Shown here: positions 17,372-48,690 of the stretch, piece after piece
Position numbering within the stretch: the stretch's first letter is position 1
Layout: every line of letters begins with the position of its first letter
Assembly: GCA_041666185.1 (NCBI GenBank)
Contig: JBAYHL010000003.1
Span: 935-64,934 of the forward strand
Direction: 5' to 3'
DNA from: Patescibacteria group bacterium
GTDB lineage: Bacteria; Patescibacteriota; UBA1384; UBA12157; JAENIV01
Length of the DNA: 64,000 bases
Translations under genes and position numbers: made by a program
Notes under the pieces: model-generated
What the model was told of the DNA's origin: nothing
The model's database searches: none
What the model saw: only the letters and a program-made list of their open reading frames with translations

Positions 17372-17586
17372 GAAGAGATAGCAGCAATCAATGATAGGTC
17401 CTCGGGTCGCTACGCTCGCATTCAGCCACCCTATCCAACCTACTCGTCGCTTCCGATTTTGCCTCATCGCCAAGCTTCGGCAAATCGGAGCGTTCCTCGA
17501 CCGGCTTCGCTCGGTAGCTTCCCTCGGTTCTAAATTTTGTTTAAATAGATACATGGTTTGTTTAAAAATTAGGAATTTGTCATTGT

Positions 17587-18042: not shown

Positions 18043-20376
18043 TTGTCAAATATTCTTTGGTTTCGAGACGTTTCAAAGGAAGACATTGCTGTTGCCGGCG
18101 GCAAAGGAGCTAATTTAGGTGAACTAACACGAGCAGGATTACCAGTACCACCTGGTTTTATTATAACTTCAACGGCTTATTTTGATTTCTTGAAAAATAC
18201 AGGTTTAAACAAGAAGATAAAAAAAATTATAAGTGGTCTGGATGTTGATGATAGCAAAAGATTAAACGCTATTGCTTTAGAACTCCAAAAAGAAATTTTA
18301 TCAAAACCCCTACCGAGTAGTTTGGCTAAGGAAATAATTGCTGCTTATCAAAAACTTTACACAACGTCGTCTTCGGCGATTTTTGTGGCCGTTCGTTCTT
18401 CCGCTACCGCAGAAGATTTACCAACAGCTTCTTTTGCCGGTCAACAAAAAACCTTTTTAAATGTTTCTGGTTCCGATGGAGTGATTAAAGCTGTTCGTCA
18501 AGCATGGGCGTCTCTGTTTGAACCGCGGGCAATTTATTATCGTAAAATAAATAACTTCGATGATTTAAAAGTTGGTATTGCTGTGCCGGTCCAAAAAATG
18601 ATACAGTCCGAAAAATCGGGCATTATGTTTACGATCGAGCCAGTGAGCTCGGACATGGAAAAAACTGTTATCGAAGGCGGCTGGGGGTTGGGAGAAGCCA
18701 TTGTTAGTGGTAGTGTCACCCCGGATCGTTATGTAGTTAGAAAAAAAGATTTAGAAATTTTGGAACGAAATATTGAACCACAAGCTTGGAAAATTATTAA
18801 GGTTGGTAAAGAAAACAAACATATTACTTGTACTAAAAAAGAACGAGAAGAGCAAAAATTAACTGATGAGGAAATTAAGAAATTAGCTGAATTTGGTGTA
18901 AAAATTGAGGAACATTACGATGCTCCTCAAGATACCGAATGGGCAATTGAGGGTGGTAATATTTATTTTGTTCAATCAAGACCAGTGACGACGATAAAAA
19001 AAACAACAACTGACAATCAACAACCGACAACTAATGAAGCTCGGCAAGAGGGAGAGTCGTCAGCTGGCGATGGTAAGTTGGAAGTTATTCTCAAAGGTAT
19101 TGCCGCTTCTTTGGGAATTGCTTCTGGTCCAGTTAAAATTATTCACTCACCATCAGAGATTGATAAAGTTTTAGAAGGCGAAGTTTTGGTAACGGAAAAA
19201 ACTAGTCCAGATTTTGTGCCGGCCATGAAGAAAGCGGCGGCAATTATTACTGAAACTGGAGGACAAACTTCTCATGCGGCAATTGTTTCACGTGAGTTAG
19301 GTATTCCTTGTGTTGTTGGTACAGGAACGGCGACCCATGTGTTGAAAACTGGTCAAGTTGTTTCTGTTGATGGCGCCAAAGGTTTTGTTTATAAAGGTAA
19401 AATAACACGTACAGAGGCACCGGCGGCTCATGATGATCATGGTGGTTTTGCTGAGGAAGTGCCAATTACGGCGACCAAAGTTTATGTTAATTTGGGTGAG
19501 CCTTCGGTGGCGGAAAAAGTTGCTCAACTACCAGCCGATGGTGTTGGTTTAATGCGAGCAGAATTTATGATTGCCGAAATTGGTGAACATCCCCGCGCTT
19601 TAGTGAAAGCTGGTAAAAGCGAAGAATATGTCAAAAAAATTGTTGATGGATTAACGGATGTATGCAAAGCTTTTTCTCCTCGACCGGTAGTTTACAGGGC
19701 AACTGATTTTAAAACTAATGAATATAGAAATTTAAAAGGTGGCGAAGCTTTTGAGCCTCAAGAAAATAATCCGATGATTGGTTATCGAGGAGCTTATCGT
19801 TATCTTAAAGAACCGGATTTATTCAAACTAGAACTAGAAGCTATTAAGAGTGTAAGGGGAATGTATGAAAATTTATGGTTGATGATTCCTTTTGTTAGAA
19901 CTATTGCCGAATTTAGAAAAGTAAAAGAATTAATTGATGAGTCAGGTTTACGTCGTGGACCAGACTTTAAGCTTTGGATGATGGTTGAGATTCCTTCAAA
20001 TGTTATTTTGATTAATGAATTTTGCCAGGAAGGTATTGATGGAGTTTCGATCGGTTCAAATGATTTAACACAATTAACTTTAGGAATAGATCGTGATAAC
20101 GAAGTTTTGGCGGAGGAATTTGATGAAAGAGATGAGTCTGTCAGGATTAGCATTGCCCATGTAATTAAAACTTGTCGTAGACACCATATCAGTGTCTCTA
20201 TTTGTGGTCAGGCGGCAACAACTTATCCGGAAATTGCTGAGTTAATGGTCAAAGAAGGAGCAACTTCAGTTTCAGTTTCACCTGATTCGGTGGTGGCAAC
20301 GCGAAAATTAATTGCTTCAGTAGAGAAAAAAATAATGCTTTCAAAAATTATTGACGATGAAGAACAGGTTGGTTAA
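18043..20376 (+). CDS. ppsA: Phosphoenolpyruvate synthase (pyruvate, water dikinase); TTG start
   Basis: GGKGANLGEL ATP-grasp motif, phospho-His motif GGQTSHAAIVSRELGIPCVVG, C-terminal PEP-utilising TIM domain. Confidence 0.85.
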   Translation: MSNILWFRDVSKEDIAVAGGKGANLGELTRAGLPVPPGFIITSTAYFDFLKNTGLNKKIKKIISGLDVDDSKRLNAIALELQKEILSKPLPSSLAKEIIAAYQKLYTTSSSAIFVAVRSSATAEDLPTASFAGQQKTFLNVSGSDGVIKAVRQAWASLFEPRAIYYRKINNFDDLKVGIAVPVQKMIQSEKSGIMFTIEPVSSDMEKTVIEGGWGLGEAIVSGSVTPDRYVVRKKDLEILERNIEPQAWKIIKVGKENKHITCTKKEREEQKLTDEEIKKLAEFGVKIEEHYDAPQDTEWAIEGGNIYFVQSRPVTTIKKTTTDNQQPTTNEARQEGESSAGDGKLEVILKGIAASLGIASGPVKIIHSPSEIDKVLEGEVLVTEKTSPDFVPAMKKAAAIITETGGQTSHAAIVSRELGIPCVVGTGTATHVLKTGQVVSVDGAKGFVYKGKITRTEAPAAHDDHGGFAEEVPITATKVYVNLGEPSVAEKVAQLPADGVGLMRAEFMIAEIGEHPRALVKAGKSEEYVKKIVDGLTDVCKAFSPRPVVYRATDFKTNEYRNLKGGEAFEPQENNPMIGYRGAYRYLKEPDLFKLELEAIKSVRGMYENLWLMIPFVRTIAEFRKVKELIDESGLRRGPDFKLWMMVEIPSNVILINEFCQEGIDGVSIGSNDLTQLTLGIDRDNEVLAEEFDERDESVRISIAHVIKTCRRHHISVSICGQAATTYPEIAELMVKEGATSVSVSPDSVVATRKLIASVEKKIMLSKIIDDEEQVG

Positions 20377-20385
20377 CGCAGGGTA

Positions 20386-20414
20386 TTGACAAGCGGTTTT
20401 CGTTTCGTCATAAT
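20386..20414 (+). promoter_or_regulatory. Sigma-70-like promoter TTGACA-17-CATAAT
   Basis: ttgaca at 20386-20391 and cataat at 20409-20414. A leader hairpin follows at about 20487-20530. Confidence 0.45.
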
Positions 20415-20540
20415 CAATAACATAGAATTATACATACCTCACAGGAAGGGGGTGGGTAGTTTGTTAAACAGTAGTTGAAGTACTCTTGTTCTTGGTAACG
20501 ACGACCATTGTAAGTAAACAAGAACAGGAGGAGTAGTAAA

Positions 20541-20822
20541 ATGTCTGTTATGTTTGTAACTGAAGGAAGGATAGAGAAGGTATTCGGTGTCGAGCTTGGG
20601 TTGTCCAACGGAGAAATGAATAAATTGGACAGTATGGCAGCCAAAGGCTCGGAAGGTGAATTGAAGGCATTGAATAGGCTGGTTCGTAAGGCTGAGAAAA
20701 TCAGTGCGTCCCCTCCTAACGGGAATGGCCATAATGGTCATGGCCATCGGAGTAAGAAACCGTCTAAGGCACCTGCCACTATGCGCGTGTCTCGCGTTGT
20801 TGTCGCGTGTATGTGCCGGTAA
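20541..20822 (+). CDS. Small His/Gly-rich protein (NGNGHNGHGH, C-terminal CMCR), 93 aa, GC-rich relative to the window
   Basis: RBS aggagg 8 nt upstream, its own promoter, and terminator GGCCGCC..GGCGGCC at about 20851-20880. Confidence 0.45.
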   Translation: MSVMFVTEGRIEKVFGVELGLSNGEMNKLDSMAAKGSEGELKALNRLVRKAEKISASPPNGNGHNGHGHRSKKPSKAPATMRVSRVVVACMCR

Positions 20823-20921
20823 CTTGCCTGCGATCTATGTTTTTATGTCGGCCGCCTTTTTTATCAGGCGGCCTTTTAAGTTACAGGAATAATTGGTATA
20901 ATAAGATTAAATTTTAAATTT

Positions 20922-21167
20922 ATGAATTATACATATCTTATTAAAAGTAAAATTAAAGAATGGGTTTATATTGGTTCAACGAAAGATCTTGTTAAGCGTT
21001 TTAGTGAACATAACAATGGTAAAGTCAGAAGTACAAAAGGGTTGATTCCATTTGAGCTGATTTATTACGAAGCATATCAAACTTATCATTTGGCAAGGAA
21101 ACGAGAGGTTGAGTTAAAAAAGCAAGGTCAACAGAAAGAAATATTGTTTAATAGATTAGGATTATGA
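20922..21167 (+). CDS. GIY-YIG nuclease family protein (small, YhbQ/UPF0213-like)
   Basis: WVYIGSTKDLVKRFSEHN...PFELIYYE shows the GIY-YIG motif pattern. Confidence 0.65.
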   Translation: MNYTYLIKSKIKEWVYIGSTKDLVKRFSEHNNGKVRSTKGLIPFELIYYEAYQTYHLARKREVELKKQGQQKEILFNRLGL

Positions 21168-21186
21168 GTTTTATTCTTTGTTGAGC

Positions 21187-21273
21187 GGAGAGGTCGCATA
21201 GAGGCCGAGTGCGTTCGCTTGGAAAGCGAATAGGTTCGTAAGAGCCTCGCGAGTTCGAATCTCGCCCTCTCCG
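21187..21273 (+). tRNA. tRNA-Ser (anticodon GGA), class II with a long variable arm
   Basis: Acceptor GGAGAGG/CCTCTCC. D-stem GCA/TGC. Anticodon stem TTCGC/GCGAA with loop TTGGAAA. T-arm GCGAG-TTCGAAT-CTCGC. CCA is not encoded. Confidence 0.75.
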
Positions 21274-21391
21274 CTTAGTAAAGAATAAGGGTTCTGACCC
21301 TGCGGGTCATCAACCGTAGGTTGAGAATCCCTGCCTCTCCGTTTATCCTGACTTGTCCCGAGTGTAATCGAAGGACCATTTCAGTAAACTT

Positions 21392-21658
21392 TTGGTGAGT
21401 CGTATGAATAAAAAATGGTTTTTTTATATTGTAAGGTGTAGTGATAATTCGCTGTATTCTGGAATAACGAATAACATTAACGAAAGGATATCCAAGCATA
21501 ATAAAGGAAAGGGTGCAAAATATACATCCTGTAGAAGGCCTGTTAAGCTTGTTTATAGTGAAGAGTGTGAGGATATTTCTAGTGCAAGAAAAAGGGAAGA
21601 GCAGGTAAAAAGGTGGAAAAAGGAAAAGAAAGAAGTGTTAATAAAGGATTTCTCTTGA
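21392..21658 (+). CDS. GIY-YIG nuclease family protein (second, diverged paralogue)
   Basis: FFYIVRCSDNSLYSGITNNINERISKHN...PVKLVYSE. Confidence 0.65.
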   Translation: MVSRMNKKWFFYIVRCSDNSLYSGITNNINERISKHNKGKGAKYTSCRRPVKLVYSEECEDISSARKREEQVKRWKKEKKEVLIKDFS

Positions 21659-21686
21659 CTACGTTTAGGGTAAACGAATCCGCGGT

Positions 21687-21715
21687 TGATACTTTTCGAC
21701 AGTAATGTTATAGTG
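21687..21715 (+). promoter_or_regulatory. Promoter TTGATA-17-TATAGT for the RRM gene
   Basis: Seen directly in the sequence. Confidence 0.4.
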
Positions 21716-21822
21716 AGCATGTTAATTTACTTAAGTACTAAAGCAAACATACCGATGTAAGCTGAACTATTAAGAAATTAGGTCGGTTTACAATTAAATG
21801 TTAATTAAAAAGAAAGAAAAAA

Positions 21823-22095
21823 ATGGCTAAAAAATTATTTGTTGGTGGCTTGTCTTACAACATGACAGAAGACACTTTACGAGAAACTTTTACTAAAGTT
21901 GGTACAGTTGAATCCGCAGTTATTATTAACGATAAAATGACCGGGCAATCAAAAGGTTTTGGTTTTGTTGAAATGGCAACTGAAGAAGAAGCGAAAAAAG
22001 CAATCGAAACACTTAACGGGTCAGAATTAGATGGAAAAAAACTTACCGTTAATGAAGCACGTCCAATGGAAGATCGTCCACGAAGAAGTTTCTAA
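21823..22095 (+). CDS. RNA-binding protein with a single RRM domain
   Basis: RNP-2 LFVGGL and RNP-1 KGFGFVEM. Confidence 0.8.
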   Translation: MAKKLFVGGLSYNMTEDTLRETFTKVGTVESAVIINDKMTGQSKGFGFVEMATEEEAKKAIETLNGSELDGKKLTVNEARPMEDRPRRSF

Positions 22096-28774: not shown

Positions 28775-31700
28775 ATGAACCAAGATGAGGTAAATGAAGC
28801 GAAGTCTTTAGATGCCGAAATTTCTAAAATTACAAAAAGCACTCGAGCGACCGTGCCGGCAATGACGCCGTTGCACGATATTTTGCGTCAAAAATATCCT
28901 TGGTATTACAGGTGGCACTTAAATCCTTTGAGTAAAGTTGTCCATACCTTAGTTTTGGGTTTGTGGATAGTTTTAGTTACGGGAACAGTTGTCTATAGTA
29001 ATGTTTATCAGGCGCCAACGGCTAAAGCCGCCGCTGATTTTACTTGTACTTGGGACGGAACAACTGGTAACTGGTCGGATACGGCTAAGTGGGGTGGTTG
29101 TAACAGTGAATATCCAGGGCAAACTGGGACTACTACTTACGATGTTTCGATCCCTTCAGGGTCAGTGACTTTGGATGTTGCTAGCGTCGATATCACCGCT
29201 GCCGGAACAACTGCAGGGGATATTTCTGTGGTTGGAACTTTAAATACAAATGGCAATGCTCTTACCTTACATTCAATGTTGGTTGATACTGGAGGAACTC
29301 TTGTAGCTGGGATTTCTACTTTTACTGTAAAAAGTAACTGGAATCATTCCGCGGGAACATTTATTCACAATACTTCTACCATTGCAATGACAGGAGCTAC
29401 AGGTTCGATCACCACAGGTACAGATTTAAAATATGTATATAACTTAACAACAACTACTGCTGGCCAAACCATTACTTTTGCCAATAGAACTGGCATCAAA
29501 GGAGTGCTAACAGTAGGTAATGCCTCTAGTGCGGTTACATTAAATGGTAATCAACTTATAGATTTGTACGACAATACTACACCGCTTTCTTTGACTGGAT
29601 TGTATAGCATAACATCAGTACAAATGACCTTCAGGGCAACATCTCCTTTGTCTATACCGGCTGCAACCTATGGAGTAGTTTATATATTTCTTAATGCCAC
29701 CAATACCATATCTTTAAGTGGAACAACTACTTTTAGTGCACTTGATATTTACTCTGCTGTGGACAGCGCTACGTCTACACTTGACACTGCCGGCTACACT
29801 GTAAATACTGTCAATCTTTCGATAGGATCAGCTAGTGGAACTAGTCATTGTGGCAAATTTATTGCCAATAACTCAACAGTAAATGTTAGTGGAAATGTTC
29901 TTATTCGCGCTTGTGGTGCAGGGACTGCTGAACTTGATGCTGGAAGTTCTACTATTAATGTTGGTGGAGATTACACTAATAATAGTACTTTCACTGCCAG
30001 TACCTCGACCATTAATTTTAATAAAACTTCCGGTACACAAACTCTTACTTCAGGTGGTACGGGAACAGGAAAATTATTTAATAATCTTACTCATTCTGGT
30101 GCGGGAATTTTGAGGTTAGCCACCAACGATATTGATGTGAATGGCACTTTCACTAATTCTGCCGGAACTTTTGATGCTGATACAAACGATAAAAGTATGA
30201 ATTTTGCTGGAGCTTGGAACAATACTGGGTCGGCGACATTTTCAAGAGGATCTGGGATGTTATATTTTGATGGAGCAACAACATTGACTGACTCTTCTTC
30301 CAACGCCGGCGATTTGGGGGTGGTATATATAACCCCTACATGTGTCTTAACTCTTGGGTCGAATGCCAAAATGACCTCTGTTACTAGTGTGGTTTTCTTA
30401 GGAAATCTCAACATGGGAAGTGGAAATACTTTGACGCTTACTGGCACTGGAACGCCCATGTCGTGGTTTGATACAACAACCTTTCAAAAAGGTACCAATT
30501 CGACTGTAACTTATACTGGCACAACCACGGCGACAAATGTTGCAACAGTTGCCTACAACAATCTAACCTTAACTCCAACAGCCGCTACTACTTACAGCTT
30601 AGCCGGTAATTTAACTGGTGCTAGTGCGATGAGTGGGAATTTGACTATTAATGCAAACGCTACTTTAAATACAACAACCTCAAATTACGGAATATCTACA
30701 ATAAATTTAACTATTAATGGAACTCTTTCCGCCAATGCTTCAGCAATTACTTTATCGGGTTCATGGAATAGCACTACTGGCCATTATAATAGGACAAGCG
30801 GCTCAAGCGGCTCTCATGTTACAATGACTGGCACAACAGGGACAGCCTCTATTAATTTTAATCCGGCTGATTTTTGGACCAGCACAACATCTTTTAACTA
30901 TCTAGAAATTAATGCGCCGGGTAACACAGTTACTTTGTCGAGTGACATTACTTTTTGGTATGATTGTCAATTAAATCTTCAAAGTGGCACAATAAATGGT
31001 AGCCGGTATATTACTTTTGCTTATCCTAATAACTCGTCTCCATATATTAATACTGCTGCCTCTTTTGGTGCTTCTTTGCCGACAGTCAGCTATATTATTG
31101 GCACTTCAAATCCTGCCTCTCCTACAATTGTATCGAGCGAAATTTATCCCAATTTAACTATCACTACTGGTAGCGCATGTCCAGCCGGCACCGAATGTTA
31201 TGCTAAATTATCCAGCGGTATTTCTGCTAACAACCTTATAGTCTCTGGTCAGACTGGTAAAAAAGCAACTTTAAATGCCGACATTCACGATATATCTGTA
31301 GGTAATGCTTTAATTATGGGAACAGCAGGTGGTTATTATGGCGAATTGGATATAAATAGCTCTTTAACTGTTAACAATTATGTCAGCATAGTTAATTCTG
31401 GTGTCGCCTTTTCAAACAAGCTCGTTGCTGGCACAGGCACATCTATCTCTGTCGCTAATGATTTCATGAACTATGACACCTTTGAGGCCGGCACTTCGAC
31501 AATCACCTTTAACGGATCAACAACAAATAGAGGCATTACGACTAATGGGGATGCTTTTTATAATTTAACCATTGACGGAGCTGGTGGTGGTTGGATAGCC
31601 CAAAGTGCAGTTAATGTAACCCATGACTTTAATATTACTAATGGTACATTTGATCTTAAGAGCGGCAGTAATTATGCCTTAAATGTTGGTAACGATTTTA

Positions 31701-34700
31701 TTGGTAACAATGGCACTTGGACATTTGAAATGAGGGCTTCAACCATTACAGTTTCCGGTAACTGGAATACTTCAGCTAAAGCATGGGATAGCACAAACAA
31801 CAATGCTCTTAAAACAGGGACTTCAACTGTTGTAATGAATGGAACAGGTACTAAAACAATTACAACTGGTGTCACAAATGCCTGGGAATCAAGATTTTAT
31901 AATTTAACTGTTGGCCAAAGTGGTAACACCACCAGCCTTGCACAAGCAGTTGGGACTGATGGGGTTCTGACAGTCGGGACAGGGACTTTTTCAATTGCGA
32001 CTGATAAAACCATTTATCTCAAAAAACCAACTGGCGATGTTTTATCACTTGATCCGGCTGCGGTTTTAGTAGGAGTAGGTACTGGCCATCTCAGTCTTCA
32101 CAGTAATGGTACGAGCGGTACTTTAAATCTGCCAGCACACACTTATGATATGTCAATATGGCTAAGTGGTGGTGGTTTTACTGTGGCTCAAACTGGTGAC
32201 GTAATTATAAATGGTAATTTAATGGTAAATGGAGATCAGCAAGCTAGCAGAGTTGCTAATTACAACACAGGCAATCATTCTTTAACCATTTCTGGCAATC
32301 TTCAAGTTGGTTACAATACTACTACTTACGATGCTAATAAGACTTTCACTGCTGGTAGTTCGACTGTTACGGTTGGTGGCAATATGACTCAATATGGTAT
32401 TCTAACCGCCGGTAGTTCTACCTTTGATTTTAATTCTGCAAGTAGCCGAACCTTAGACTCTGGTGGCACAGGTGCCAATCAAACATTTAATAATCTTACT
32501 CACTCAGGTAATAATACTTTGCAGCTTGTGACCAACTCTATTAATATTAATGGTAATCTTACTAATTCTGCCGGCGAATTTGATGCTAATGGGCTAAATG
32601 TTGATGTTGCTGGTAATTGGGATGTTGCCGGTGGAGGTTTTTATGCCGGGGCGACTCCTGGAACGCAAACAGTCACTTTGGATGGCGCAGGAGGATCCAC
32701 TCAAGCAATTTCTGGTTCAACAACTTTTAATAATTTAACGGCGACAACTGCAACTGCTAGAACTCTACAATTTGCTGCGGCATCGACTACGGTTGTAGAA
32801 GGTGTTTTGACAATGGACGGTGCGGCAGGACAACTGCTTTCCTTACGTTCGTCTTCTTCTGGTTCTTGGTGGTATTTTGGTACTCTTAATCCAGCCGAAA
32901 CCTCTTACCTAGATATTCAGGATTCAGACGCTTCTTTGGGTGCCACCAATACGGCTAACACTTCTAATGATTCTGGTAATAATCAAAATTGGGTTTTTGG
33001 TGGGGGAGTTACTTATATTTCCGGAACGGTCTATACTAATGAAAACAAATCCACCAACGTTGGTGCGGGAATAACGGTGGCTATTTCAGTTAATGGTGGA
33101 GCAAAGAATACAATAACAACGACTGCCGGCGGGGTATTTAGCTTTAATTCTGTGGGAGTAGCCGCTAACAACACTCTTACTATTTTTACTGATGATGTTA
33201 CCTATAAATCAAATCTTGTTACCCAAGTTTTAAATACGGTAGATGACATTACGGGCTTGGAAATGTACACCGGAGATATTTCGCTTCGTCATGAAACTGC
33301 GGGACCCTTAACTAACACATTACTTGCAACAGCTGATAATCTAGCTGACCCTAATATGTTTTTCTCGGTTGATGGTTCTAATAACGCAACTTTTTCCAAA
33401 AAACTCTGGGTAGAAAGTGGTTACAACTATACACCAGGAGGTAACGTTACGGTTAACGATAGTACGGAAATTAGAAGTCTTGCTACTTTAAACCTGGGTT
33501 CTTCTGGTTATATTTTAACCTTGGGTGGTACATCAGCTACACCATTAGTGGTTTCTGGGACGCTTTCAACTGGCAGTAGTTCAACTGTTAAATACACAGC
33601 TGTTAATGCTGGGAGCAATGTCAGTGTTGTCGCTACTCCTTACAACAATCTTCAATTTTCACCTGCCTCGGCTGAAAGCTATGATTTAGCTGGTAACCTT
33701 ACTGTTGCTAATGCCATGACGGGCAGTTTAACAGTTGATGCTAATGCAACGCTTAATACCTACGTTGGAACTACAAGTTACAACATTTCTTGTGTAAATG
33801 GAACTGTTAATGCTAGTGGAACTCTTTATGCTGGCGCAAATGGCAGCACTGGCACGTCAACTTTTACGGCTTCTGGTAACTGGGACACCTCCAATGGTAC
33901 ATTTACTTACGGGACTTCAACAGTTGTTCTTACGGGTACAGCAAATTTAGGTGCTGGATCGTCTGCTTCTCATTCACTGTACAATTTGACAATGACTACT
34001 CCCGGTCAAATTGTAACTTTGTCTAGCATTGCTACAAAAGTTTACGGTACTTTTACAGTTGGTAGTACCTCGGGTGCTAAAGTTACTCTACAGAGAGGTG
34101 GTGGGAATGCATGGTTTTATTTGTACAACAATACTACCCCGTTAGTTTTCAACGGAACTTACAATGGGAGCCCTGGGTATAATATTGATGATTTAAATAC
34201 AGTATATAATCCTACATTAGACACATCTTTTGTTGGTGGTCATTTTGGGAATTTATATTTTACTTGTAACAACAAGACTATCACACTTGCTAATGCTGTT
34301 ACCGCAACTGGTAATCTTTTTATTTATAGCTCCAATAGCACTTATCGCTCAACCGTTGATACGGCAAGTAATGCAGTTACTGCTGGGACTTTAAATCTTG
34401 GCCAGGCTAGCTATACGTCAAATTACGCTACTTTATTAGCCAATGCTTCAACTATTACGGCGGCGAATGTTGTTATAAGAACCGGAGCTTTGGCAAACAA
34501 TATTTTAAACGCTGGTTCGGCAACTATTAATGTTTCTACCAACTGGACAAATGCTGACACATTTACAGCCGGAACTTCAACAGTTAATTTCAATGGTACG
34601 ACAACCCAAACTATTACCGGTGCTAATACTTGGTATAATTTGACGATCGCCAATACCGCTGGTACACCAAGTGATACTTACGATGTTGACCCAACTGCTG

Positions 34701-37700
34701 CTCAAACTGTGACTAATACTTTTAATATTAACGATGGCCAATGGAGCGGTTTTAATGGCGACACCTATAACAATATTAATATTAATTATACTAACGGCAC
34801 TGTTAATGGCATTTTTAAACCAGACGCAGGTGCTAATATTAATATTTCTAGCAACTGGACACAAGCGCTTAATTCCGTTTTTACTTATGGTACGAGTACA
34901 ATTACTTTTACTGGTAGCGGCAAAACTATTGGTGGAACAGCAAGCTACAGTATTTTTTATAATATAACAATAAATCCAGGTGCGTCAGTTACCAATAATC
35001 TTCCTTATGTGTATAACTTTGGTCCTAATTTTACGGCTAATGGTACCTTTACAGTTGGGGATGGTAAATATGTAGGTCTTTATTATGTTGGTGGGTCAAC
35101 GGTTTCTATCGGTGATGGTGGTTTAATTCAAGGAATTGATGTTGCCGATTCCATTTTTAACGTAGAAGATCTTGCGCCAACGGTTAATTTAACTGGTACA
35201 GGAAATTTTGGTTCTAATCTTTATTTAAGGTTTATGTTTGTCGATAGTAATGGCACACTGCCTTCTCTCAATTATAAAGCAGGAAAAGTAGAAGCTTATG
35301 GTTTATATTTTACAAGTGGTACTTATACTATCACACCAACAGCCGGGACATTAGATATTGATGGTGATTTTTCTATCATGGGCGAAGAGTACGATCAAAT
35401 GACTTCTACTATCGACTTTAATAATTCCAACAATACGACGATTAATATTGGTGGAAGTTTTTCTAGGACAGATGCCTTTGGCGTTCCTGAAATTAAATAT
35501 ACCAAGGGTACGACTGATACAGTCACTTTTGATGCCGCTGCAGGTACAAAAACTTTTGATCCAGGCACAACATCCGTTTTCAATAATCTTACTCACTCTG
35601 GTGCGGGAACTTTACAACTTGCTAATACTGCCTTAAATATTGATGGCAACTTTTCTAACTCAGAATCTGCGGGAGAATTTGATGCCAATGGTTTAAATAT
35701 TAATGCCGCTGGCAATTGGGACGTTGCCGGTGGAGGTTTTTATGCCGGGGCGACTCCTGGAACGCAAACAGTCACTTTAGATGGTGCAGGAGGATCCACT
35801 CAAGCAATTTCTGGTTCAACAACTTTTAATAATTTAACAGCAACAGCTGCTACTGCCCGGACTTTACAGTTTGAAGGTGGTCAATTAAATATGGTTTCTG
35901 GTACTTTAACCATGAATGGCGCGGCAGGACAACTGCTTTCTTTGCGCTCATCTTCTCCTGGTACTACTTGGTATTTTGCCACTTCCGGCACGCCAACAAC
36001 TTCTTATCTAGATGTTAAGGACTCCGATGCTACTTTGGGAGCAACAATTAGCGCTAGCAATTCATTAAATTCTGGTAATAATTACAACTGGAGTTTTGGT
36101 GGCGGTGTAAATTATATGTCTGGTACGGTCTATACCAATGAAAACAAATCCACCAACGTTGGTGTTGGTGTTACGGTGGCAGTTTCAGTTAACGGTACGG
36201 CTAAACAGACAACGACAACCACGGCTGGCGGAGTATTTAGTTTTAACTCTGTTGGGGTTGCCGCTAACGAAACTTTAACCTTTTTCACTGACGATGTAAC
36301 TTACAAATCAAACCTTGTTACACAAGTTTTAAATACGGTAGATGACATCACGGGATTGGAAATGTACACCGGAGATATTTCACTTCGTCACGAAACCGCC
36401 GGGCCAATAACCAACACCTTGCTTGCAACAGCTGATAATCTGGCTGACCCTAATATGTTTTTCTCGGTTGATGGTTCTAATAACGCAACTTTCTCAAAGA
36501 AACTTTGGCTAGAATCAGGTTACACTTACACGCCAGGAGGAAATGCTACGGTTAATGACAATACTGAAGTTAGATCAACTGCTACCTTAAATCTAGGTTC
36601 GTCTGGTTACATCTTAACTTTAGGTGGTACATCAGCCACACCATTAGTGGTTTCTGGGACGCTTTCAACTGGCAGTAGTTCAACTGTTAAATACACAGCT
36701 GTCAATGCCGGCGGCAATGTTAATGTGACAACTGTACCTTACAACAACCTCCAATTCACACCGGCGTCAGCTGAAAGCTACGATTTAACCGGTAATCTTA
36801 CTGTTGCTAATGCTATGACAGGGAGTCTTACAATTGATACTAACGCAACCTTTAGCACAACAGCTTCTAACTACAATGTCGCTGGGATTAATGCGACGAT
36901 CGTGGGTACTTTAACGCCAAATGCTTCAACTATTACTCTTTCCGGTAACTGGGATTCGTCGACAGGGACTGTTAATATGACTGGGAATACTTCGACCGTT
37001 GAAATTACCGGTAATAGCTCAATTAATGGTAAAAGCTGGGTTAATACTTTTTATAATCTAAAAACAGCTTATACCGACAAAAATGTTAGCTGGACAAATA
37101 ATAGTGCCATAATTAATCAGCTTACGTTGATGGGGACCAATCCAAGTACCTCTCATATTACTGGAGTTGCTAGTCAATATGGTCCTAATTTGAATGTTAG
37201 CGGGTCTAATTTAGTTGTTTCTAACGGTGCCAATATGGTGAACTTGACAATTCTTTATACTGGTTCGGGAGCAACGACTATTACTCCCGGTACTTTTTAC
37301 TCTATTTTGGCGGTTGCTCCATCTTCATCAACTCAGACTTTAGGTGGCGATGTTACCTGTGATTATGTTAGAGTTTTTGGTTCTTCTGGGCAAACAGCCA
37401 CATTGGATTTGAATGGTTACACCTTAAATTCTGTTTCAAGCACTGGTTTTAACCAAATTGGTTGGGATGGTGACAACACGCGTTATGGCAAAATTATCAA
37501 TAGCTCTCAGACAACTGACGCGACAATTAATGCTAATGGCGGTGGTAGTGGTGGTATAAAAATTAGTACCTCCAATACAGGTGGTAAAAATATTCTTGAT
37601 GCCAGCGGCGTTGGTCCTGCTAATCATACGATTAATGTTAATATGGCTGGTAACTGGACGAATAACGATCAATTTATATACAGTAATTCAACAGTTAAAT

Positions 37701-40700
37701 TTACCGGTACGGGAGCGATCGACAATACTGCTAGTTGGGGTGATAACAATAAGCGTATGCACAGCCTAATCATTGAAGCCGGTGCTGGTACGGTGACTCT
37801 AACAAACGGAGCCTATTTAATGGGCACAGGAACTTTAACTTTAAATAGCGGCATTCTTACTGGTAATAAAAATATCTATGTAAATGCATTTAATGGGTCG
37901 TATGTTAATAACGGTATTAGTAATTTTGGCGCCTCAAAACCAGTTATTACCATGATGGTTAGTTCGACTAACCCAGCTTCGCCAGATATTATCTCTGGGG
38001 CTTCAGCAACCTATCCTTATCCTTATCTAGAAACCCGTGGCGGAATTAGCAGCGCGACTGTTTATGGCAAAATGGGTGGCAATATCACCAGCTCTAGTTT
38101 TACTATTGCCCCTTGGCAAACTAACGATACCTTAGAAGTTGACACCGACAATTATTCTATTACTGTTAACGGTTGGATGTTTGTTGGCGCTAACTGGGCA
38201 ACTTCCCATGCCTCAATTTTGAATGCTCGTCACTCAACAATCACTGTTACTGGTGAAGTTGGTATATATTCTCACGATACTAATCCTACTCCAAGCGAGC
38301 TTCGTTTTGATGACACTGGTGGTAGCCTTTCGGTGATGGGCAATTTTAACTTTGATACTGCAGGTGGCTCAGTAAGAGGCATTTTCACACCAGGTCACTC
38401 AACAGTTACCTTTAATGGAGCCAATACCCAAGCCATTATCGGTGCCAACACTTGGTATAACTTAACGATTGCCAATACTGCTGGTTCACCAAGCGACACT
38501 TACGACGTTGATCCAACGGCGGCTCAAACAGTTACTAACACTTTCAATATTAACGACGGTCAATATAGCGCTTTTAATGGTGACAGTTACAATGACATTA
38601 ATATTAATTATACCAGTAGTACTGTTAAGGGTATATTTAAACCAGATGCGGCAGCAAGTGTTACTGTTTCTGGCAACTGGTCTCTAGCAACTAGCGCTAC
38701 CTTTACTTATGGTACAAGTACAATCATCTTTACTGGTAGTGGTAAAACTATTGGGGGGACGTCGCTTAGTTGGTCTCTTTATAGTCTCGTAATTAATCCA
38801 GGCGCTTCTATTACAAGCAATACAGCTTATATATATGTTTATGGCACTACTTTTACAGTTAATGGTACATTTAGTGTAAATAATATAAGTGTTTATGCTC
38901 CTACTGTTACGGTCAACAGTACCCTGACTGTTGGTGATGCTAAGATGTTGTATTGGTCGAACTCTAACCAAACGCTTAACATTGGTGACGGTGGCTTGAT
39001 TCAAGGAGTCGATGTTGCAGATTCTGTGTTTAGAATAATTGGTGACGCAACACCAACTATCAATTTAACCGGAACGGGAAATTTTGGTTCCAGTCTTTAT
39101 TTACAGTTTATGATTTATTATGGTGATTTAGCGCTGCCTTCTTTAAATTATCAAGCTGGTAAGGTTGAAGTGTTTGGCTCTTTTGCATTTGAAAGTATTG
39201 TTCATAATATTGTACCAACAGCTGGAAATTTAGATATTGATTGGGACCTTAGTATCAAATGTGAATTGATATTTGGAACGGGCACTCCTACTATGAATCT
39301 TTATAACTCCAATAACACACCCATTAATATTGGTGGAAGTTTTACAAGGGCAGAGATTGGTGCTGTTGGTGCCATTGCTAAATACACTAAAGGCACAACT
39401 GACACGGTTACTTTTGATGCTGCTTCTGGGACAAAAACTTTTGATCCAGGGTCATTATCTACCTTCAATAATGTTACTCACTCTGGTGCAGGAACACTTC
39501 AGCTTGCTAATACTGCTCTAAATGCTGATGGTAACCTTACTAACTCTGCCGGAACTTTTGATGCTAACGGTTTAAATATTAATGTCGCTGGTAACTTTGA
39601 TATTTCTGGTGGGTCATTTTCTGCCGGAACTGTTCCTGGAACCCAAACAGTCACTTTAGATGGTGCGGGAGGATCTACTCAGGCAATCTCTGGCTCAACG
39701 ACCTTTAATAATTTGACGGCGTCAGCAACGGCGGCTAGAACTTTACAATTTGCGGCTTCGTCAACAACCGCTGTTTCTGGTACTCTAACAATGAATGGCG
39801 CGACTAGTCAACTGATAAGTTTACGCTCATCATCTTCTGGCACTGCTTGGAATCTTAACGCCACTAATGCGCCAACTCTTACCTATGTTGATGCCCAAGA
39901 TTCTAACGCTTCTGGTGGAGCGCTAATTACTGCTAATAACTCTAACGACTCTGGTAATAACACAAATTGGACTTTTGGCGGGGGAGTAACCTATATTTCC
40001 GGGACAGTCTATACAAATGAAAATAAATCCACCAATGTTGGTGCCGGTATCACTGTGGCGATCTCTGTTGATGGTGAGGCTAAACAAACAACCACGACGA
40101 CAACTGGTGGAGTCTTTGCCTTTAATTCTGTTGGTGTTGCCGCTAACAATACTTTAACTCTCTTTACAGATGATGTTACTTATAAAGGTAACTTAATTAC
40201 TCAAGTTTTAAATACCACCAACGACATTACTGGTTTAGAAATGTATACCGAAGATATTGTTATTCGTCATGAAACTGTAGGACCAATGACCAATACCTTA
40301 CTTGCAACAGCGGCTACCCTTGCCGATCCCAATATGTTTTTCTCGGTTAGTGGTGGCAACGCGACATTTACGAAAAAACTTTGGTTGGAAAGTGGCTTTA
40401 ATTACACATCGGGAGGGCAGGCATCAGTCACCGACTTAGAGACAAGAGGTACTTCGACTTTTGCTCCGCAAGCTAATAGTGTTTTTGCGTCTGGTAACTG
40501 GACAATCTCGGCGACTGGAATTTTGACAACTTCAGGAACAATTGATTTTACTAAATTATCTGGGACACAAACATTAAACTCTGGTGGTACTGATTCAAAT
40601 CATCAGCTTTATGGTCTTACTCACTCTGGTGCTGGTACTTTACAATTGACTTCCAATGCCATTGTTGAGAATAATACCTTTACTAACTCTGATGGCACTT

Positions 40701-43700
40701 TTGATACTAATAACTTAAATACATTTTTCCTTGGTGATTGGAATAATACTGGTGATGCGATTTATTCTAGAGGTAGTGGTATTTTAGATTTTGTTGGTAC
40801 TTCGATTATTACTAATACTTCAACTAATGCAGAAAGTTTGGCAGGTGTTATTATTATTGGGACTGCTACTCTTAACTCTAATCTGACAATTCAGTCAGTT
40901 ACTGGTTCAGGTACTTTAAATCTTGGTAGTGGTTCGTACACCCTTACGGTAACAAGCACTGGATCAGGTTTAGGCGTGACCAATTTCAACAAAGGTACTG
41001 GTTCAACAGTTGTTTTTACTGGTACTGGTGCCAGTGTTAACATTGCTACTTTTGCTTATAATAATTTAACTTTGTCACCGGCAACATCGGCAACTTACAG
41101 TTTAACTGGTAATCTTACGGGTGCCAATGCTATGAGCGGCAATCTTACTATTAATACTAACGCGACTTTAGACCTGCGGCCTTCAACAACCGATTATAGT
41201 CTGACGGCAGTTAATGTGACTGTTGGCGGAGTTTTGGATGCTGGCAGTTCGTCGTCTACTGTTACGGTTGGTGGTAACTGGGATGTTTCTACTGGTACTT
41301 TCACAAGGGGAACCAGCATAGTTGCTTTCACTGGGAGTTCGGCTTCTATAAATTGTGGTGCTGCTTATTGGAACAATCAGTTTTGGACAATCAACTTTCC
41401 TTCAGCCGGAACAACAACTACTACTTTAACGAATTCTATTTCGGTCAGAAATACTTCTTTAGGAAGTTCTACAAATACAATTACTAGTGCAACCAATTTA
41501 TCTATTGAGGTTTGGAACAGTGGTACACCGGTAACTAATAATAACGCTGTTTTAAGTAATGTTCAGCTAACATATAACGCAAGTGGGGCTACTAATGTGG
41601 CCGCCGGAAATTCTTTTGGTAATGTTAAGTTTTTTTCAGATACCAATAGTGTTACTTACACTTTGCAAGGTGACATTAACGCCGCTGTGGTTACTGTTTA
41701 TTCCAGTAACGACAACAGAACTGCGACACTTGATTTAGATGGCCACAACTTAACTCTTTCTAGTAGTCTTTCCGTTGGTTTAACTGGGAACACTATTAGA
41801 AATGGTGTTATCCAAAATACTAATGTAACAACTAAATCGACAATCACGTCAACCGACCTAACAATCTATAACGGTGCCGGTAATAACAAGATTTTAGCTA
41901 ATGGCACTCAAACTATTGACTTCAATGTTGCTGGCAACTGGACCAATTCTGACACATTTACTGCTGGTGCTTCGACAGTGACTTTCAATGGCACGACAAC
42001 CCAAACTATCACTGGCGCTAATACTTGGTACAACTTAACCATTGCTAACACCTACGTGACCCCAAGTGACACTTATGACGTTGACCCAACGGCGGCTCAA
42101 ACTGTTACTAACACTTTCAATGTTAACGACGGGCAATACAGCGCTTTCAATGGTGACAGCTACAATGATATTAATATTAATTATACCAGCAGCTCCGCTA
42201 AGGGTATTTTAAAACCAGACGCGGCGGCGAGCATCACTGTTTCTGGTAACTGGACATATATGTCTGGTGCTACTATTACTACTGGCACAAGTACATTCAC
42301 CTTTACTGGTAGTGGTAAGACTATTGGAGGAACTGGATCTTCATCTTTCTACAATTTTGTAATTAATCCAGGGGCATCTATTACAGGTAATGCAACCTCT
42401 TTATATGTGTACGGTCCAACATTTACAGTTAATGGCACATTTAACATTAATTCTGTATATTTTTATGGTGCTACCCTCACAGTTAATAGCACATTAACTG
42501 TTGGAGATGGAAAGATTTTTTATTGGTCATATCCAGACCTAACACTTTCTATTGGTGATGGTGGATTAATTCAAGGAGTAGATGTTAATGATTCTATATT
42601 TGAAATAAGCAATGATTCAACGCCTACTATTAATTTGGCTGGAACAGGAAATTTTGGTTCTAATCTTTATTTGCAGTTTTATCTTTATTCTGGCAGTCTT
42701 TCTATTCCTTCCTTGCATTACCAAGCCGGTAAGGTTGAGGTATATGGTTCTTTCGCGTTCGAAAGTTCTACTCACACTGTTGTACCGACAGCTGGGACAT
42801 TAGACATTGACGGAAATTTCAGTCTTAAAAGTGAGGTTTTCATTTCAGGTACTCCTGTTATTGACTTCAATAACTCCAATAATACGACTATTAATATTGG
42901 TGGAAATTTTTCCAGAACAGAGATAGGGGGTGCTGTTGCTAAATACACTAAAGGTACAACCGATACAGTTACTTTTGACGCTGCTTCTGACACAAAAACT
43001 TTTGATCCTGGTTCTACCTCAGTTTTCAACAATGTTACTCACTCTGGTGAAAGTACTTTGCAGCTTGTTAATACTAATCTAAACGTCGATGGCAACTTCA
43101 CTAATTCGGCTGGTACTTTTGATGCTAATGGTCGTGATATAACTGTTGCGGGATCGTGGAGCAACACGGCTACTTTTGACAAAGAAACGAGGACAGTCAC
43201 TTTCGATGGTGGTGCAACCGGAAAAACAATTAATGGTGGTGCCTCCGGATTTTATAATTTAACAATCAATGGAGCCGGTGGAGGATGGACTTTAGATACT
43301 AGTAACTTAACCACTGTTACAAACATTAGCATTAATTCCGGAACATTAAACACTGGCACTCTTTCTCTGGGAACAGCTTCCAGCACGGTTTTGAATGTTG
43401 ATGGAGGAAACTTAAATGGTGGAAGTAACACAATTAATGCTAAAACTTTTAATGTGTTAAGTGGTGCTTTTGTGTCTGGTAGCGGGCAAGTTAATTTAGG
43501 GACAAACTCGTCTTGGGGTTATTATGGACACACTAGCGGAACCGCTGATTGGACTACTAACAACACAACACTTTATATCTATTCAAATAGTGAGAGGACT
43601 TTACCTCCAGATACGTATCATCATCTTACCTTAGCAGCTGTTATAATTCCTTTTTCTGGTGATCCAATCTATAGTTTAACCGGGGCAACTGTGTTGGAAG

Positions 43701-48615: not shown

Positions 48616-48690
48616 TGGTGGGCGCGGATGGATTCGAACCATCAACCGATCGGATATAAGCCGATTGCTCCGCCGTTGAGCTACGCGCCC
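48616..48690 (-). tRNA. tRNA-Ile with anticodon TAT (UAU), CCA encoded
   Basis: Acceptor GGGCGCG/CGCGCCC. D-arm GCTC-AACGGCG-GAGC. Anticodon stem ATCGG/CCGAT with loop CTTATAT. T-arm GATGG-TTCGAAT-CCATC. Discriminator A, then CCA. Confidence 0.7.

Follow-up and report, generated by a model that had tools for sequence, protein, structure and literature searches.

GIY-YIG nuclease genes of the UPF0213 family as probable mobile insertions at a tRNA-Ser gene, beside a vertically inherited small gene, in a Patescibacteria contig

INTRODUCTION

Nuclease genes that stand on both sides of a transfer RNA (tRNA) gene raise the question of whether they are parasites or partners of that gene, and whether the DNA next to them arrived in their company. 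The question is posed by positions 20386-21700 of a 64-kb stretch (64,000 nucleotides [nt]) of contig JBAYHL010000003.1, the whole of which is hereafter called the window, from a bacterium that is Patescibacteria/Microgenomates-like. Here an open reading frame (ORF) of 93 amino acids (aa), termed ORF93, is followed on the same strand by a first GIY-YIG nuclease gene (giy1), a tRNA-Ser(GGA) gene, and a second GIY-YIG gene (giy2; Table 1). An earlier inspection that used no database searches (the sequence-only reading) had seen in this region a single mobile or formerly mobile insertion of deviant base composition, with ORF93 as its cargo. Each feature that it had listed was confirmed in the sequence.

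Comparison with related loci, which are designated by L numbers throughout, leads us to favor a different account, to which we assign a probability of roughly 0.6: two unrelated things adjoin here, namely, a vertically inherited gene, ORF93, and a tRNA-Ser(GGA) gene that has been invaded at least twice by selfish cassettes made of a nuclease gene alone. That giy1 and giy2 are themselves mobile or formerly mobile insertions at tRNA-Ser is supported by the sequence comparisons that follow.

A PREDICTED NUCLEASE GENE BETWEEN A tRNA AND ITS PROMOTER

In three lineages of relatives (L087/L088/L089, L090, and L083), the ORF93 terminator is followed by a AATTGGTATnAT promoter and then by tRNA-Ser(GGA), with no GIY gene between them; the distance from this motif to the tRNA-Ser downstream, or to a 5′ fragment of it, is 13-55 nt in L090, L083, L084, and L087. 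The window has this promoter too (20893-20902), but giy1 comes next, ahead of tRNA-Ser, which would place giy1 inside the tRNA transcription unit. The gene has no Shine-Dalgarno sequence, and its stop codon falls 3 nt before the start of a helix formed by the tRNA leader and trailer. The three relatives in which this position is free of giy1 (L087, L090, L083) represent distant lineages, the product of the upstream gene ppsA in ORF93-bearing relatives being 75-91% aa identical to that of the window. A further lineage, L084/L085, combines a GIY gene whose identity with giy1 is 44% with a pseudo-tRNA and 5′ fragments of tRNA-Ser. Up to the end of the GIY ORF, its two contigs have the same sequence; beyond that point they run into different tRNAs, a divergence that amounts to the behavior of a multi-copy element.

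Orthologues of giy1 in L091, L092, and L093 share 86, 80, and 73% aa identity with it, respectively, and differ in their upstream contexts. A tRNA-Ser gene begins 16 nt after the orthologue in L091 and L092, and no more than 24 nt after it in L093, where the contig ends inside the tRNA. Across these comparisons, the proportion of nonsynonymous differences (pN) is 0.07-0.20 and that of synonymous differences (pS) 0.63-0.79; omega is at most 0.15 in the pairs that allow an estimate, and in the others synonymous sites are saturated. Judging by these codon changes, giy1 is maintained by selection. Residues Y5, Y16, R26, and H30 of giy1 are invariant in alignment A4.

A separate rearrangement of the same tRNA 5′ end occurs in L083 (5366-5470) and L084 (1190-1275), where an insertion of ~70 nt carries a second tRNA promoter and no GIY gene. 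It is flanked by a 13-nt direct repeat that equals tRNA-Ser positions 2-14 (GAGAGRTCGCATA).

A DISPLACED tRNA FRAGMENT WITH A DOUBLE HAIRPIN

The hairpin and degenerate copy of the tRNA 3′ end that had been described after the tRNA are indeed present, at 21289-21341. A 30-nt double hairpin is inserted between GGGTTC and GAATCCC of a T arm that runs on into an acceptor 3′ strand (CCTCTCCG), and this context identifies the segment as a tRNA-Ser 3′ fragment that has been displaced and whose T loop holds the insertion. Homologous displaced fragments also follow the tRNA in L091 and L092.

The double hairpin is a recurrent and covarying structure. In an alignment of seven copies from four loci plus the window, 98.8% of cells are paired, as against 18-48% in slid controls; double-sided changes affect 6 of the 12 pairs, and none of 500 shuffles reached the covariation score. 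In 337 kb of GIY loci, a covariance model located 12 double-hairpin sites, of which five are additional (in L094, L096, L099, L101, and L163) and seven are the copies on which it was trained, while 943 kb of control loci yielded no double-hairpin score better than an expectation value (E) of 0.08. The start codon of a GIY gene follows most copies at 10-25 nt, and most interrupt a partial copy of a tRNA in its anticodon, D, or T loop, for example, after G34 in L091, between positions 35 and 36 in L096, in the D loop of L101, and in the T loop of L125. Read from either strand, the module takes the same form, and a structure at the DNA level fits as well as one at the RNA level.

Interruption of a tRNA loop also brings to mind a group I intron or an archaeal-type tRNA intron. 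Both are rejected because the interrupted copies are fragments that lie beside an intact tRNA; an Rfam scan of 20300-21900 found no intron family at E up to 10.

giy2 AND ITS RELATIVES

In other genomes, seven distinct giy2-like loci were sampled, and every one of them is found immediately 3′ of a gene for tRNA-Ser or for transfer-messenger RNA (tmRNA), on the same strand. The tRNA-Ser anticodons are GCT, TGA (four loci), and CGA with GGA, and the remaining locus has the tmRNA. In all six tRNA-Ser loci, the giy2-like ORF ends in GGGTT followed by YCCTCGACnnnGCTCGGAATAAAC, a right-end module after which tRNA positions 57-76 are copied in five of the six (exactly in L171, L172, and L180; partially or in decayed form in L176 and L179). 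This copy is absent from L178, and the tmRNA locus yielded none. Directly at the tRNA 3′ end of L172 and L176, the right-end module recurs in inverted and imperfect form; the terminal inverted repeats of these two units measure 30 nt (73% complementary) and 16 nt (88%), respectively.

The window retains parts of this architecture. The right end of giy2 holds a decayed tRNA 3′ fragment at 21676-21690, and its left flank contains TTTATCCTGA, which matches the TTTACCCTGA that opens the left inverted repeat elsewhere (L172, L176, L179, L180). Since this left flank comes directly after the displaced fragment at 21289-21341, the latter is most simply the remnant of a tRNA-Ser that once preceded giy2. 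The nearest relatives of giy2, which carry the labels Dehalococcoidia, Planctomycetota, and Patescibacteria, are ~70% identical to it, in contrast to at most 55% identity between the window ppsA and those of reference genomes; one NCBI Patescibacteria GIY-YIG protein of 84 aa is identical to giy2 from the ATG-21404 start.

In the spacers between the tRNA or tmRNA and the giy2-like gene, L176 (1414-1500), L179 (1093-1175), and L173 (1224-1460) carry two to three tandem left-end repeats (TTTACCCYGAGCGAAG..CGARGGG). In L173, the tmRNA gene is followed by tandem repeats of 120 nt. Insertion that took place repeatedly may have left such remnants.

GIY GENES AND tRNAS ACROSS METAGENOMES

The association extends well beyond the immediate relatives. 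A metagenome scan with a two-sequence alignment (giy1 and the L084 protein; a five-sequence GIY alignment was too diverse) returned 80 loci. A tRNA lies within 100 bp in 19 of these, against a chance expectation of 0.0099 from the 943 kb of control loci (binomial P 5e-21); several of the loci are near-duplicates, so that the true significance is lower than this P value, with an effect that is still very large. Within 200 bp, a tRNA is found in 22 loci, and all 22 are on the same strand as the GIY gene. Serine tRNAs are over-represented among them, and many other kinds occur.

Exact copies of the adjacent tRNA, 11-57 nt in length, flank the giy1-like ORFs with a consistent polarity: an ORF with its tRNA downstream is preceded by a 5′ fragment, and where the tRNA is upstream, a 3′ fragment (approximately positions 60-76) follows each ORF. 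With intact tRNAs masked, tRNA fragments occur in 16/85 upstream and 15/90 downstream flanks compared with 1/400 control segments. Breakpoints of the fragments are concentrated in the anticodon (positions 34-36) and the T loop (positions 56/57). L111, L114, L116, and L150 hold tandem arrays that can be written tRNA-(GIY-3′ fragment)n. The bracket GIY-tRNA-Ser(GGA)-GIY of the window recurs in L092 and L115, and L152 has a GIY gene after a tRNA-Ser(GGA).

In two reference Patescibacteria genomes (L076, 3549-4193; L082, 8667-8849), GIY-YIG genes abut N-masked stretches. The L076 gene starts one base after a tRNA-Glu, and its frame runs into repeated tRNA-like sequence.

PREDICTED MINIMAL NUCLEASES OF THE UPF0213 FAMILY

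Each of the two genes encodes a single GIY-YIG domain (residues 1-71 of the 81-aa giy1 product and 8-80 of the 84-aa giy2 product), without any auxiliary domain and with significant similarity to UPF0213 members (Pfam PF01541, PDB 1ywl/1zg2). In searches against PDB, giy1 matches 1zg2 at E 4.5e-5, and giy2 matches 1ywl at E 3e-15 and 1zg2 at E 3e-13. Their Pfam scores (E 1e-15 and 9e-22) and mutual identity of 36% bear out the description of two diverged GIY-YIG genes that bracket tRNA-Ser(GGA). The sequence-only reading had proposed that UPF0213/YhbQ be weighed against a homing endonuclease, and both proteins fall into UPF0213. The likeness to this family (Escherichia coli YhbQ, Bacillus subtilis YazA, PDB 1ywl EF2693, and 1zg2 BH0048) lies in the one minimal domain of 81-84 aa and in the GIY/YIG tyrosines, the arginine, and the glutamate. 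On these grounds, giy1 and giy2 are predicted minimal UPF0213, or bacterial Slx1-like, stand-alone nucleases.

An I-TevI/Seg-type homing endonuclease is rejected because such enzymes have ~200 aa or more, against 81-84 aa here, and because the C-terminal DNA-binding region is missing. The NCBIfam model for group I intron endonucleases scores 22.5 bits against a cut-off of 56, and I-TevI (1mk0) matches at E 0.12.

In the literature, the UPF0213/Slx1-like stand-alone family figures as a putative repair factor, inherited vertically and with a function still to be assigned (PMC1564403; PMC7017083). In the open full texts covered, no report links UPF0213 genes to duplicated tRNA sequence, to arrays, or to tRNA-Ser or tmRNA neighbors, and the comparative GIY-tRNA pattern appears to be undescribed.

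SELFISH CASSETTES, HOST FACTORS, OR ISLAND SCARS

How could a bare nuclease gene spread through tRNA genes? In the mechanism that we propose, the UPF0213 nuclease would cut tRNA-gene DNA in or near a loop-coding position. The break would be repaired from an occupied copy by way of short tRNA homology, copying in the nuclease gene and regenerating an intact tRNA, and the repair would leave behind a displaced tRNA fragment whose loop holds one or two short hairpins. Always in the orientation of the tRNA and devoid of a promoter or Shine-Dalgarno sequence of their own, the cassettes would ride on the strong tRNA promoter for their expression. As for the history of the window, giy2 would at first have stood 3′ of an older tRNA-Ser, which was then overwritten by a unit of giy1 plus tRNA-Ser, with the old T-arm/acceptor fragment (21289-21341) as the sole remnant between the two units.

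The nearest functional analogue is SegB of phage T4, which likewise is encoded among tRNA genes. This GIY-YIG homing endonuclease resides in a tRNA cluster and spreads itself and the flanking tRNA region through cleavage and repair (PMC2330249), and free-standing genes of the SegB type can drive the amplification of tRNA loci (PMC13096335). The differences are considerable. Seg enzymes have at least 200 aa and carry DNA-binding modules, whereas giy1 and giy2 consist of the catalytic domain only; the Seg setting is a phage and that of giy1 and giy2 a cellular chromosome; and, unlike Seg loci, giy loci contain hairpin modules and a tRNA gene that is split and then regenerated, leaving a displaced fragment.

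A second point of comparison is offered by insertion sequences and miniature inverted-repeat elements, which the L172 and L176 units resemble in their imperfect 16-30-nt inverted repeats and their direct repeat. The giy2-like units differ from these in that they encode no known transposase family, that the direct repeat is 17-20 nt of tRNA sequence rather than a short target-site duplication, and that insertion is strictly specific to tRNA genes and in one orientation. To our knowledge, no insertion-sequence family uses a GIY-YIG enzyme.

The foremost rival to selfish cassettes sees in the GIY-YIG genes factors that serve the host at its tRNA genes or tRNAs, either through Slx1-like resolution of stalled forks or R-loops at busy tRNA genes or as an RNA-directed enzyme acting on tRNA-Ser or tmRNA, with the tRNA fragments arising as by-products of recombination at a fragile site. 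We regard this as unlikely, while granting it more weight than any other alternative. The family to which giy1 and giy2 belong is Slx1-like, and eukaryotic Slx1 maintains ribosomal DNA repeats (PMC1564403; PMC7017083); operons and fusions of UPF0213 genes with the COG4123 methyltransferase and TrmH have led to the suggestion of a role in RNA metabolism (PMC1564403). At the locus itself, giy1 is under strong purifying selection and stands beside tRNA-Ser in four lineages, and the GIY genes are co-oriented and probably co-transcribed with the tRNA. Such a factor would have no need to sit inside duplicated tRNA sequence, however, and several observations are hard to reconcile with it: the GIY gene is present in some relatives and absent from others at the same site, diverged GIY copies form tandem arrays in which each has its own tRNA fragment, inverted repeats flank the giy2-like gene in L172 and L176, contigs break at GIY genes, and identity across phyla exceeds that of a housekeeping gene (~70% for giy2 vs at most 55% for ppsA).

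Alternatively, the tRNA fragments might be old attachment-site scars of deleted tyrosine-integrase islands or prophages, and the GIY-YIG genes their leftover cargo. tRNA-Ser and tmRNA genes are favored island targets, a point in favor of this scenario, which we nevertheless deem improbable. A tRNA gene with a displaced fragment is the classical signature of an island: the target tRNA or tmRNA gene is split and then restored by the element, the regenerated gene and the fragment mark the ends, and tandem arrays occur (PMC4383910). In the window, the regenerated tRNA and same-orientation fragments (21289-21341 and the decayed 21676-21690) bracket the element in just this way. Islands, in contrast, are multigene elements with a tyrosine integrase, whereas the giy units measure ~0.3-0.4 kb and hold the GIY-YIG gene alone. 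No tyrosine integrase lies between tRNA and fragment in the window or the giy2-like loci, where the sole ORF is the GIY-YIG gene, and dozens of independent loci have one ORF of ~250 bp and no integrase in this place. Moreover, 5′ fragments also occur at giy loci, with breakpoints in the anticodon and D loops, and the arrays repeat the GIY gene itself.

ORF93, A CORE GENE OF THE LINEAGE

What, then, of the GC-rich gene a few bases upstream? ORF93 lies directly 3′ of ppsA in every lineage (the window, L087/L088/L089, L090, L083, and L084/L085). The order ppsA-ORF93-tRNA-Ser(GGA) is shared by the first four, and in the fifth, L084/L085, tRNA-Ser exists only as fragments; in L083, the order HTH (helix-turn-helix)-recA-recX-ppsA-ORF93 is the same as in the window. 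In every relative, ORF93 is 10-12 GC points above ppsA, with a GC content at third codon positions (GC3) of 0.58-0.64. As this excess is found in all lineages, it is a maintained property of the gene rather than a mark of recent transfer. A word-index search with ORF93 found only the query itself, and exhaustive phmmer recovered four homologous clusters at ~54% identity. In the codon alignment, pN is ~0.3 against a pS of 0.6-0.86, and mismatches by codon position are ~0.35/0.30/0.60; with third positions changing about twice as often and pN below pS, the frame is under purifying selection. Frame, start, and Shine-Dalgarno sequence are conserved among the homologues. Conserved order and composition in distant relatives is what the sequence-only reading itself had taken as the sign of core rather than accessory DNA. 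To judge from these alignments, ORF93 is a vertically inherited small gene specific to the Microgenomates-like lineage, and thus lineage core.

It is therefore very improbable that 20386-21700 forms one compositionally deviant mobile islet with ORF93 as a metal-binding or toxin/antitoxin cargo. The local GC peak, the GC3 of 0.50, the promoter and terminator that ORF93 has for itself, and its orphan status in family libraries would all suit an islet. Against this stand the position of ORF93 after ppsA in all five lineages, with or without GIY genes, a GC excess common to them all, and its absence from the closest giy1 loci (L091-L093). There is no partner gene for a toxin-antitoxin pair, and nothing supports either proposed role. 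The claim of a mobile insertion is thus supported for the GIY-YIG genes, by their presence and absence among relatives and by tRNA fragments above chance, and fails for a single islet that includes ORF93.

The elevated GC content is real, at 0.49 compared with a window mean of 0.373 (standard deviation 0.045), in keeping with a low-GC contig (37% GC). The peak, at 20551 (measured over 300 nt), is not the sole one, being among the three highest of the 64 kb. The rise stems from ORF93, whose GC3 of 0.50 compares with 0.22-0.28 in neighboring genes. The highest peak of the window (~0.50 at 44900-45300) lies in a single ORF of 6018 aa at 28775-46831 (+).

The expression signals read from the sequence alone have held up well. 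The promoter has 11 of 12 consensus matches; L083 and L090 retain its TTGACA box, which has degenerated in L084, and L086 has no aligned -35 region (alignment A2). The terminator has the strong hairpin claimed for it (20850-20873, 8 bp with seven GC pairs, and a T run), and GC-rich hairpins with T runs likewise lie 3′ of ORF93 in L083, L084, L087, and L090. The leader hairpin was recovered as a conserved stem, with a 13-bp consensus in five lineages, an invariant GTTCTT/AAGAAC core, loops of 11 to 35 nt, and double-sided changes in 3 of the 13 pairs. A block upstream of it, CAGGGAAGGnGGTG, is also conserved. The 3′ arm overlaps the Shine-Dalgarno sequence AGGAGG (20526-20531), and it is conceivable, at low confidence, that the hairpin gates translation of ORF93 by sequestering this site.

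As for the protein, the 93-aa ORF is present as described, while its characterization as His/Gly-rich and ending in CMCR fares less well: it has only four histidines (NGNGHNGHG), and CMCR is not conserved in the homologues. An AlphaFold2 model has a β-hairpin and two helices (residues 9-55, predicted local distance difference test [pLDDT] scores of 73-92, against a mean of 67 for the model) and a disordered C-terminal tail that carries the conserved NGNGHNGHG..KKPSK. ORF93 has no match in Pfam, NCBIfam, PHROG, PDB sequences, or Foldseek, and none of the five family members matches Pfam at E up to 10. Neither a ribbon-helix-helix nor another known small DNA-binding fold was matched; the resemblance is confined to the β-α-α pattern of the model. 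From its modelled β-β-α-α N-domain and basic disordered tail, one may suppose, with low confidence, a small nucleic acid-binding or regulatory protein.

Least credible of all is that the GC-rich 20420-20880 transcript is a structured noncoding RNA and the ORF93 frame spurious: flat codon-position GC (0.52/0.45/0.50), a folding z-score of -2.6, and the transcript's own promoter and terminator could be so read, and the idea is rejected because changes at third codon positions are twice as frequent, pN falls well short of pS, frame, start, and Shine-Dalgarno are conserved, and Rfam at gathering and permissive thresholds matched tRNA only.

GENOMIC SETTING AND COORDINATES

The gene order of the window is recA, recX, ppsA, the ORF93/giy1/tRNA-Ser/giy2 region, a gene for an RNA recognition motif protein, dnaG, and rpoD. 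Its counterpart in ENA is contig k141_1493124 of assembly ERZ27249449. For comparison of this interval, 80 ppsA loci were fetched from reference genomes and reused as the control set. The best of these ppsA sequences are only 49-55% identical to that of the window, and no synteny is common to the window and the 80 loci, with the exception of ppsA-dgt-dnaG-rpoD in three contigs labelled Chloroflexota/Dehalococcoidales (L029, L033, L035). In these, ppsA is ~53% identical and is followed by the dGTPase gene, dnaG, and rpoD, echoing the ppsA...dnaG-rpoD of the window.

The ~215-nt spacer between recA and recX (17372-17586) is GC-rich (0.44-0.45) and contains a hairpin, CCGATTTTGCC/GGCAAATCGG; in the relative L083, recA and recX overlap without a spacer. 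The spacer has no Rfam match and no convincing match elsewhere. One CCTCGAC..GCTCGG motif in it (17495-17514) resembles giy2-type element ends, as a single weak match.

The helix between leader and trailer of tRNA-Ser(GGA) is conserved with different sequence in L087, L091, and L092. Comparable helices of 10-16 bp extend the acceptor stem of many tRNA genes, among them those of L125, L132, L139, and L146 and the window tRNA-Ile (48616-48690, minus strand), which has no GIY gene nearby, and this suggests an unusual signal for pre-tRNA processing in this group. The same tRNA-Ile has the anticodon TAT (UAU) in place of the usual bacterial solution of CAU plus lysidine; a tRNA-Ile with a UAU anticodon is uncommon in bacteria.

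Table 1. Features of the ORF93-giy2 region, in window coordinates
Feature	Position	Strand	Details
ORF93 promoter, TTGACA-17-CATAAT	20386-20414	+	sigma-70 type, 11/12 consensus matches
ORF93 leader hairpin (5′ untranslated region)	20484-20530	+	arms CTCTTGTTCTTG (20484-20495) / CAAGAACAGGAG (20519-20530)
ORF93, 93-aa ORF	20541-20822	+	lineage-restricted small protein gene
ORF93 intrinsic terminator	20850-20877	+	8-bp hairpin (20850-20873), 7 GC pairs, plus T run
tRNA-Ser extended -10 promoter, TGGTATAAT	20893-20902	+	same motif drives tRNA-Ser directly in relatives
giy1, predicted 81-aa minimal GIY-YIG (UPF0213/Slx1-like) nuclease gene	20922-21167	+	Pfam PF01541, E 1e-15
16-bp leader/trailer helix around tRNA-Ser(GGA), TTATTCTTTGTTGAGC / GCTTAGTAAAGAATAA	21171-21288	+	duplex -10.7 kcal/mol
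tRNA-Ser(GGA)	21187-21274	+	ARAGORN; Rfam 53.8 bits
Displaced tRNA-Ser 3′ fragment (T arm and acceptor 3′ strand), GGGTTC..GAATCCCTGCCTCTCCG	21289-21341	+	62.8 bits (covariance model)
30-nt double hairpin in T loop of displaced fragment	21295-21324	+	two abutting 15-nt hairpins, TGACCCTGCGGGTCA + TCAACCGTAGGTTGA
Left flank of giy2 unit	21342-21403	+	GGTGA ribosome-binding-like site before ATG
giy2, predicted 84-aa UPF0213 GIY-YIG nuclease gene, GKGAKYT type	21404-21658 (alternative start 21392)	+	Pfam PF01541, E 9e-22
Right end of giy2 unit, GGATT + TCTCTTGACTACGTTTAGGGTAAAC + GAATCC..	21646-21690	+	decayed module, alignment A8 (L171, L172, L176)

DISCUSSION

The account that we favor, a vertical ORF93 next to a tRNA-Ser gene invaded by nuclease-only cassettes, has a number of points to contend with. 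UPF0213 proteins have no DNA-binding domain able to confer site specificity. The intact tRNA beside each cassette should stay a target, and immunity to re-cutting lacks an explanation. Strong purifying selection and the stable pairing of giy1 with tRNA-Ser at saturated synonymous divergence would fit a host-beneficial partner equally well. In the window, no tRNA 5′ fragment precedes giy1, and both the tRNA fragment to the right of giy2 and the inverted repeats of its unit are decayed, none of the latter being detected there, nor in L171 or L173. About two-thirds of the giy1-like loci have no tRNA or fragment nearby, many contigs being short and the tRNA library small, and the 80 loci are not all independent of one another. 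What is suggested for the function of ORF93 derives solely from a medium-confidence model (mean pLDDT 67) of a protein without a fold or family match.

A broader proposal can be put forward more tentatively, as one that we hold to be slightly short of an even chance: UPF0213 proteins, an orphan family familiar for more than twenty years, may represent a widespread class of minimal, integrase-free mobile elements that home into tRNA genes, especially tRNA-Ser, and into tmRNA genes. Such an element would comprise one nuclease gene of ~250 bp with hairpin or inverted-repeat ends, would regenerate its target, and would leave hairpin-disrupted fragments behind; the class would span Patescibacteria, Dehalococcoidia, and other phyla.

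Were this to be true, several consequences would follow. Only tyrosine integrases have been known to target tRNA genes, and the Islander search rejects candidates without an integrase (PMC4383910); software for finding islands would thus miss elements of this kind because it requires one. The strategy of splitting and regenerating a tRNA gene would not be confined to tyrosine integrases, a bare ~250 bp of GIY-YIG coding DNA being sufficient for it. The pseudo-tRNA fragments, tandem small ORFs, and contig breaks at tRNA genes in assemblies of candidate phyla and Dehalococcoidia would find an explanation, and the elements would be a source of mini-nucleases with natural specificity for tRNA genes. 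For annotation, ORF93, core to its lineage, is told apart from accessory DNA that lies a few bases away. Finally, at least part of the large UPF0213/YhbQ/YazA family would acquire a concrete, testable role.

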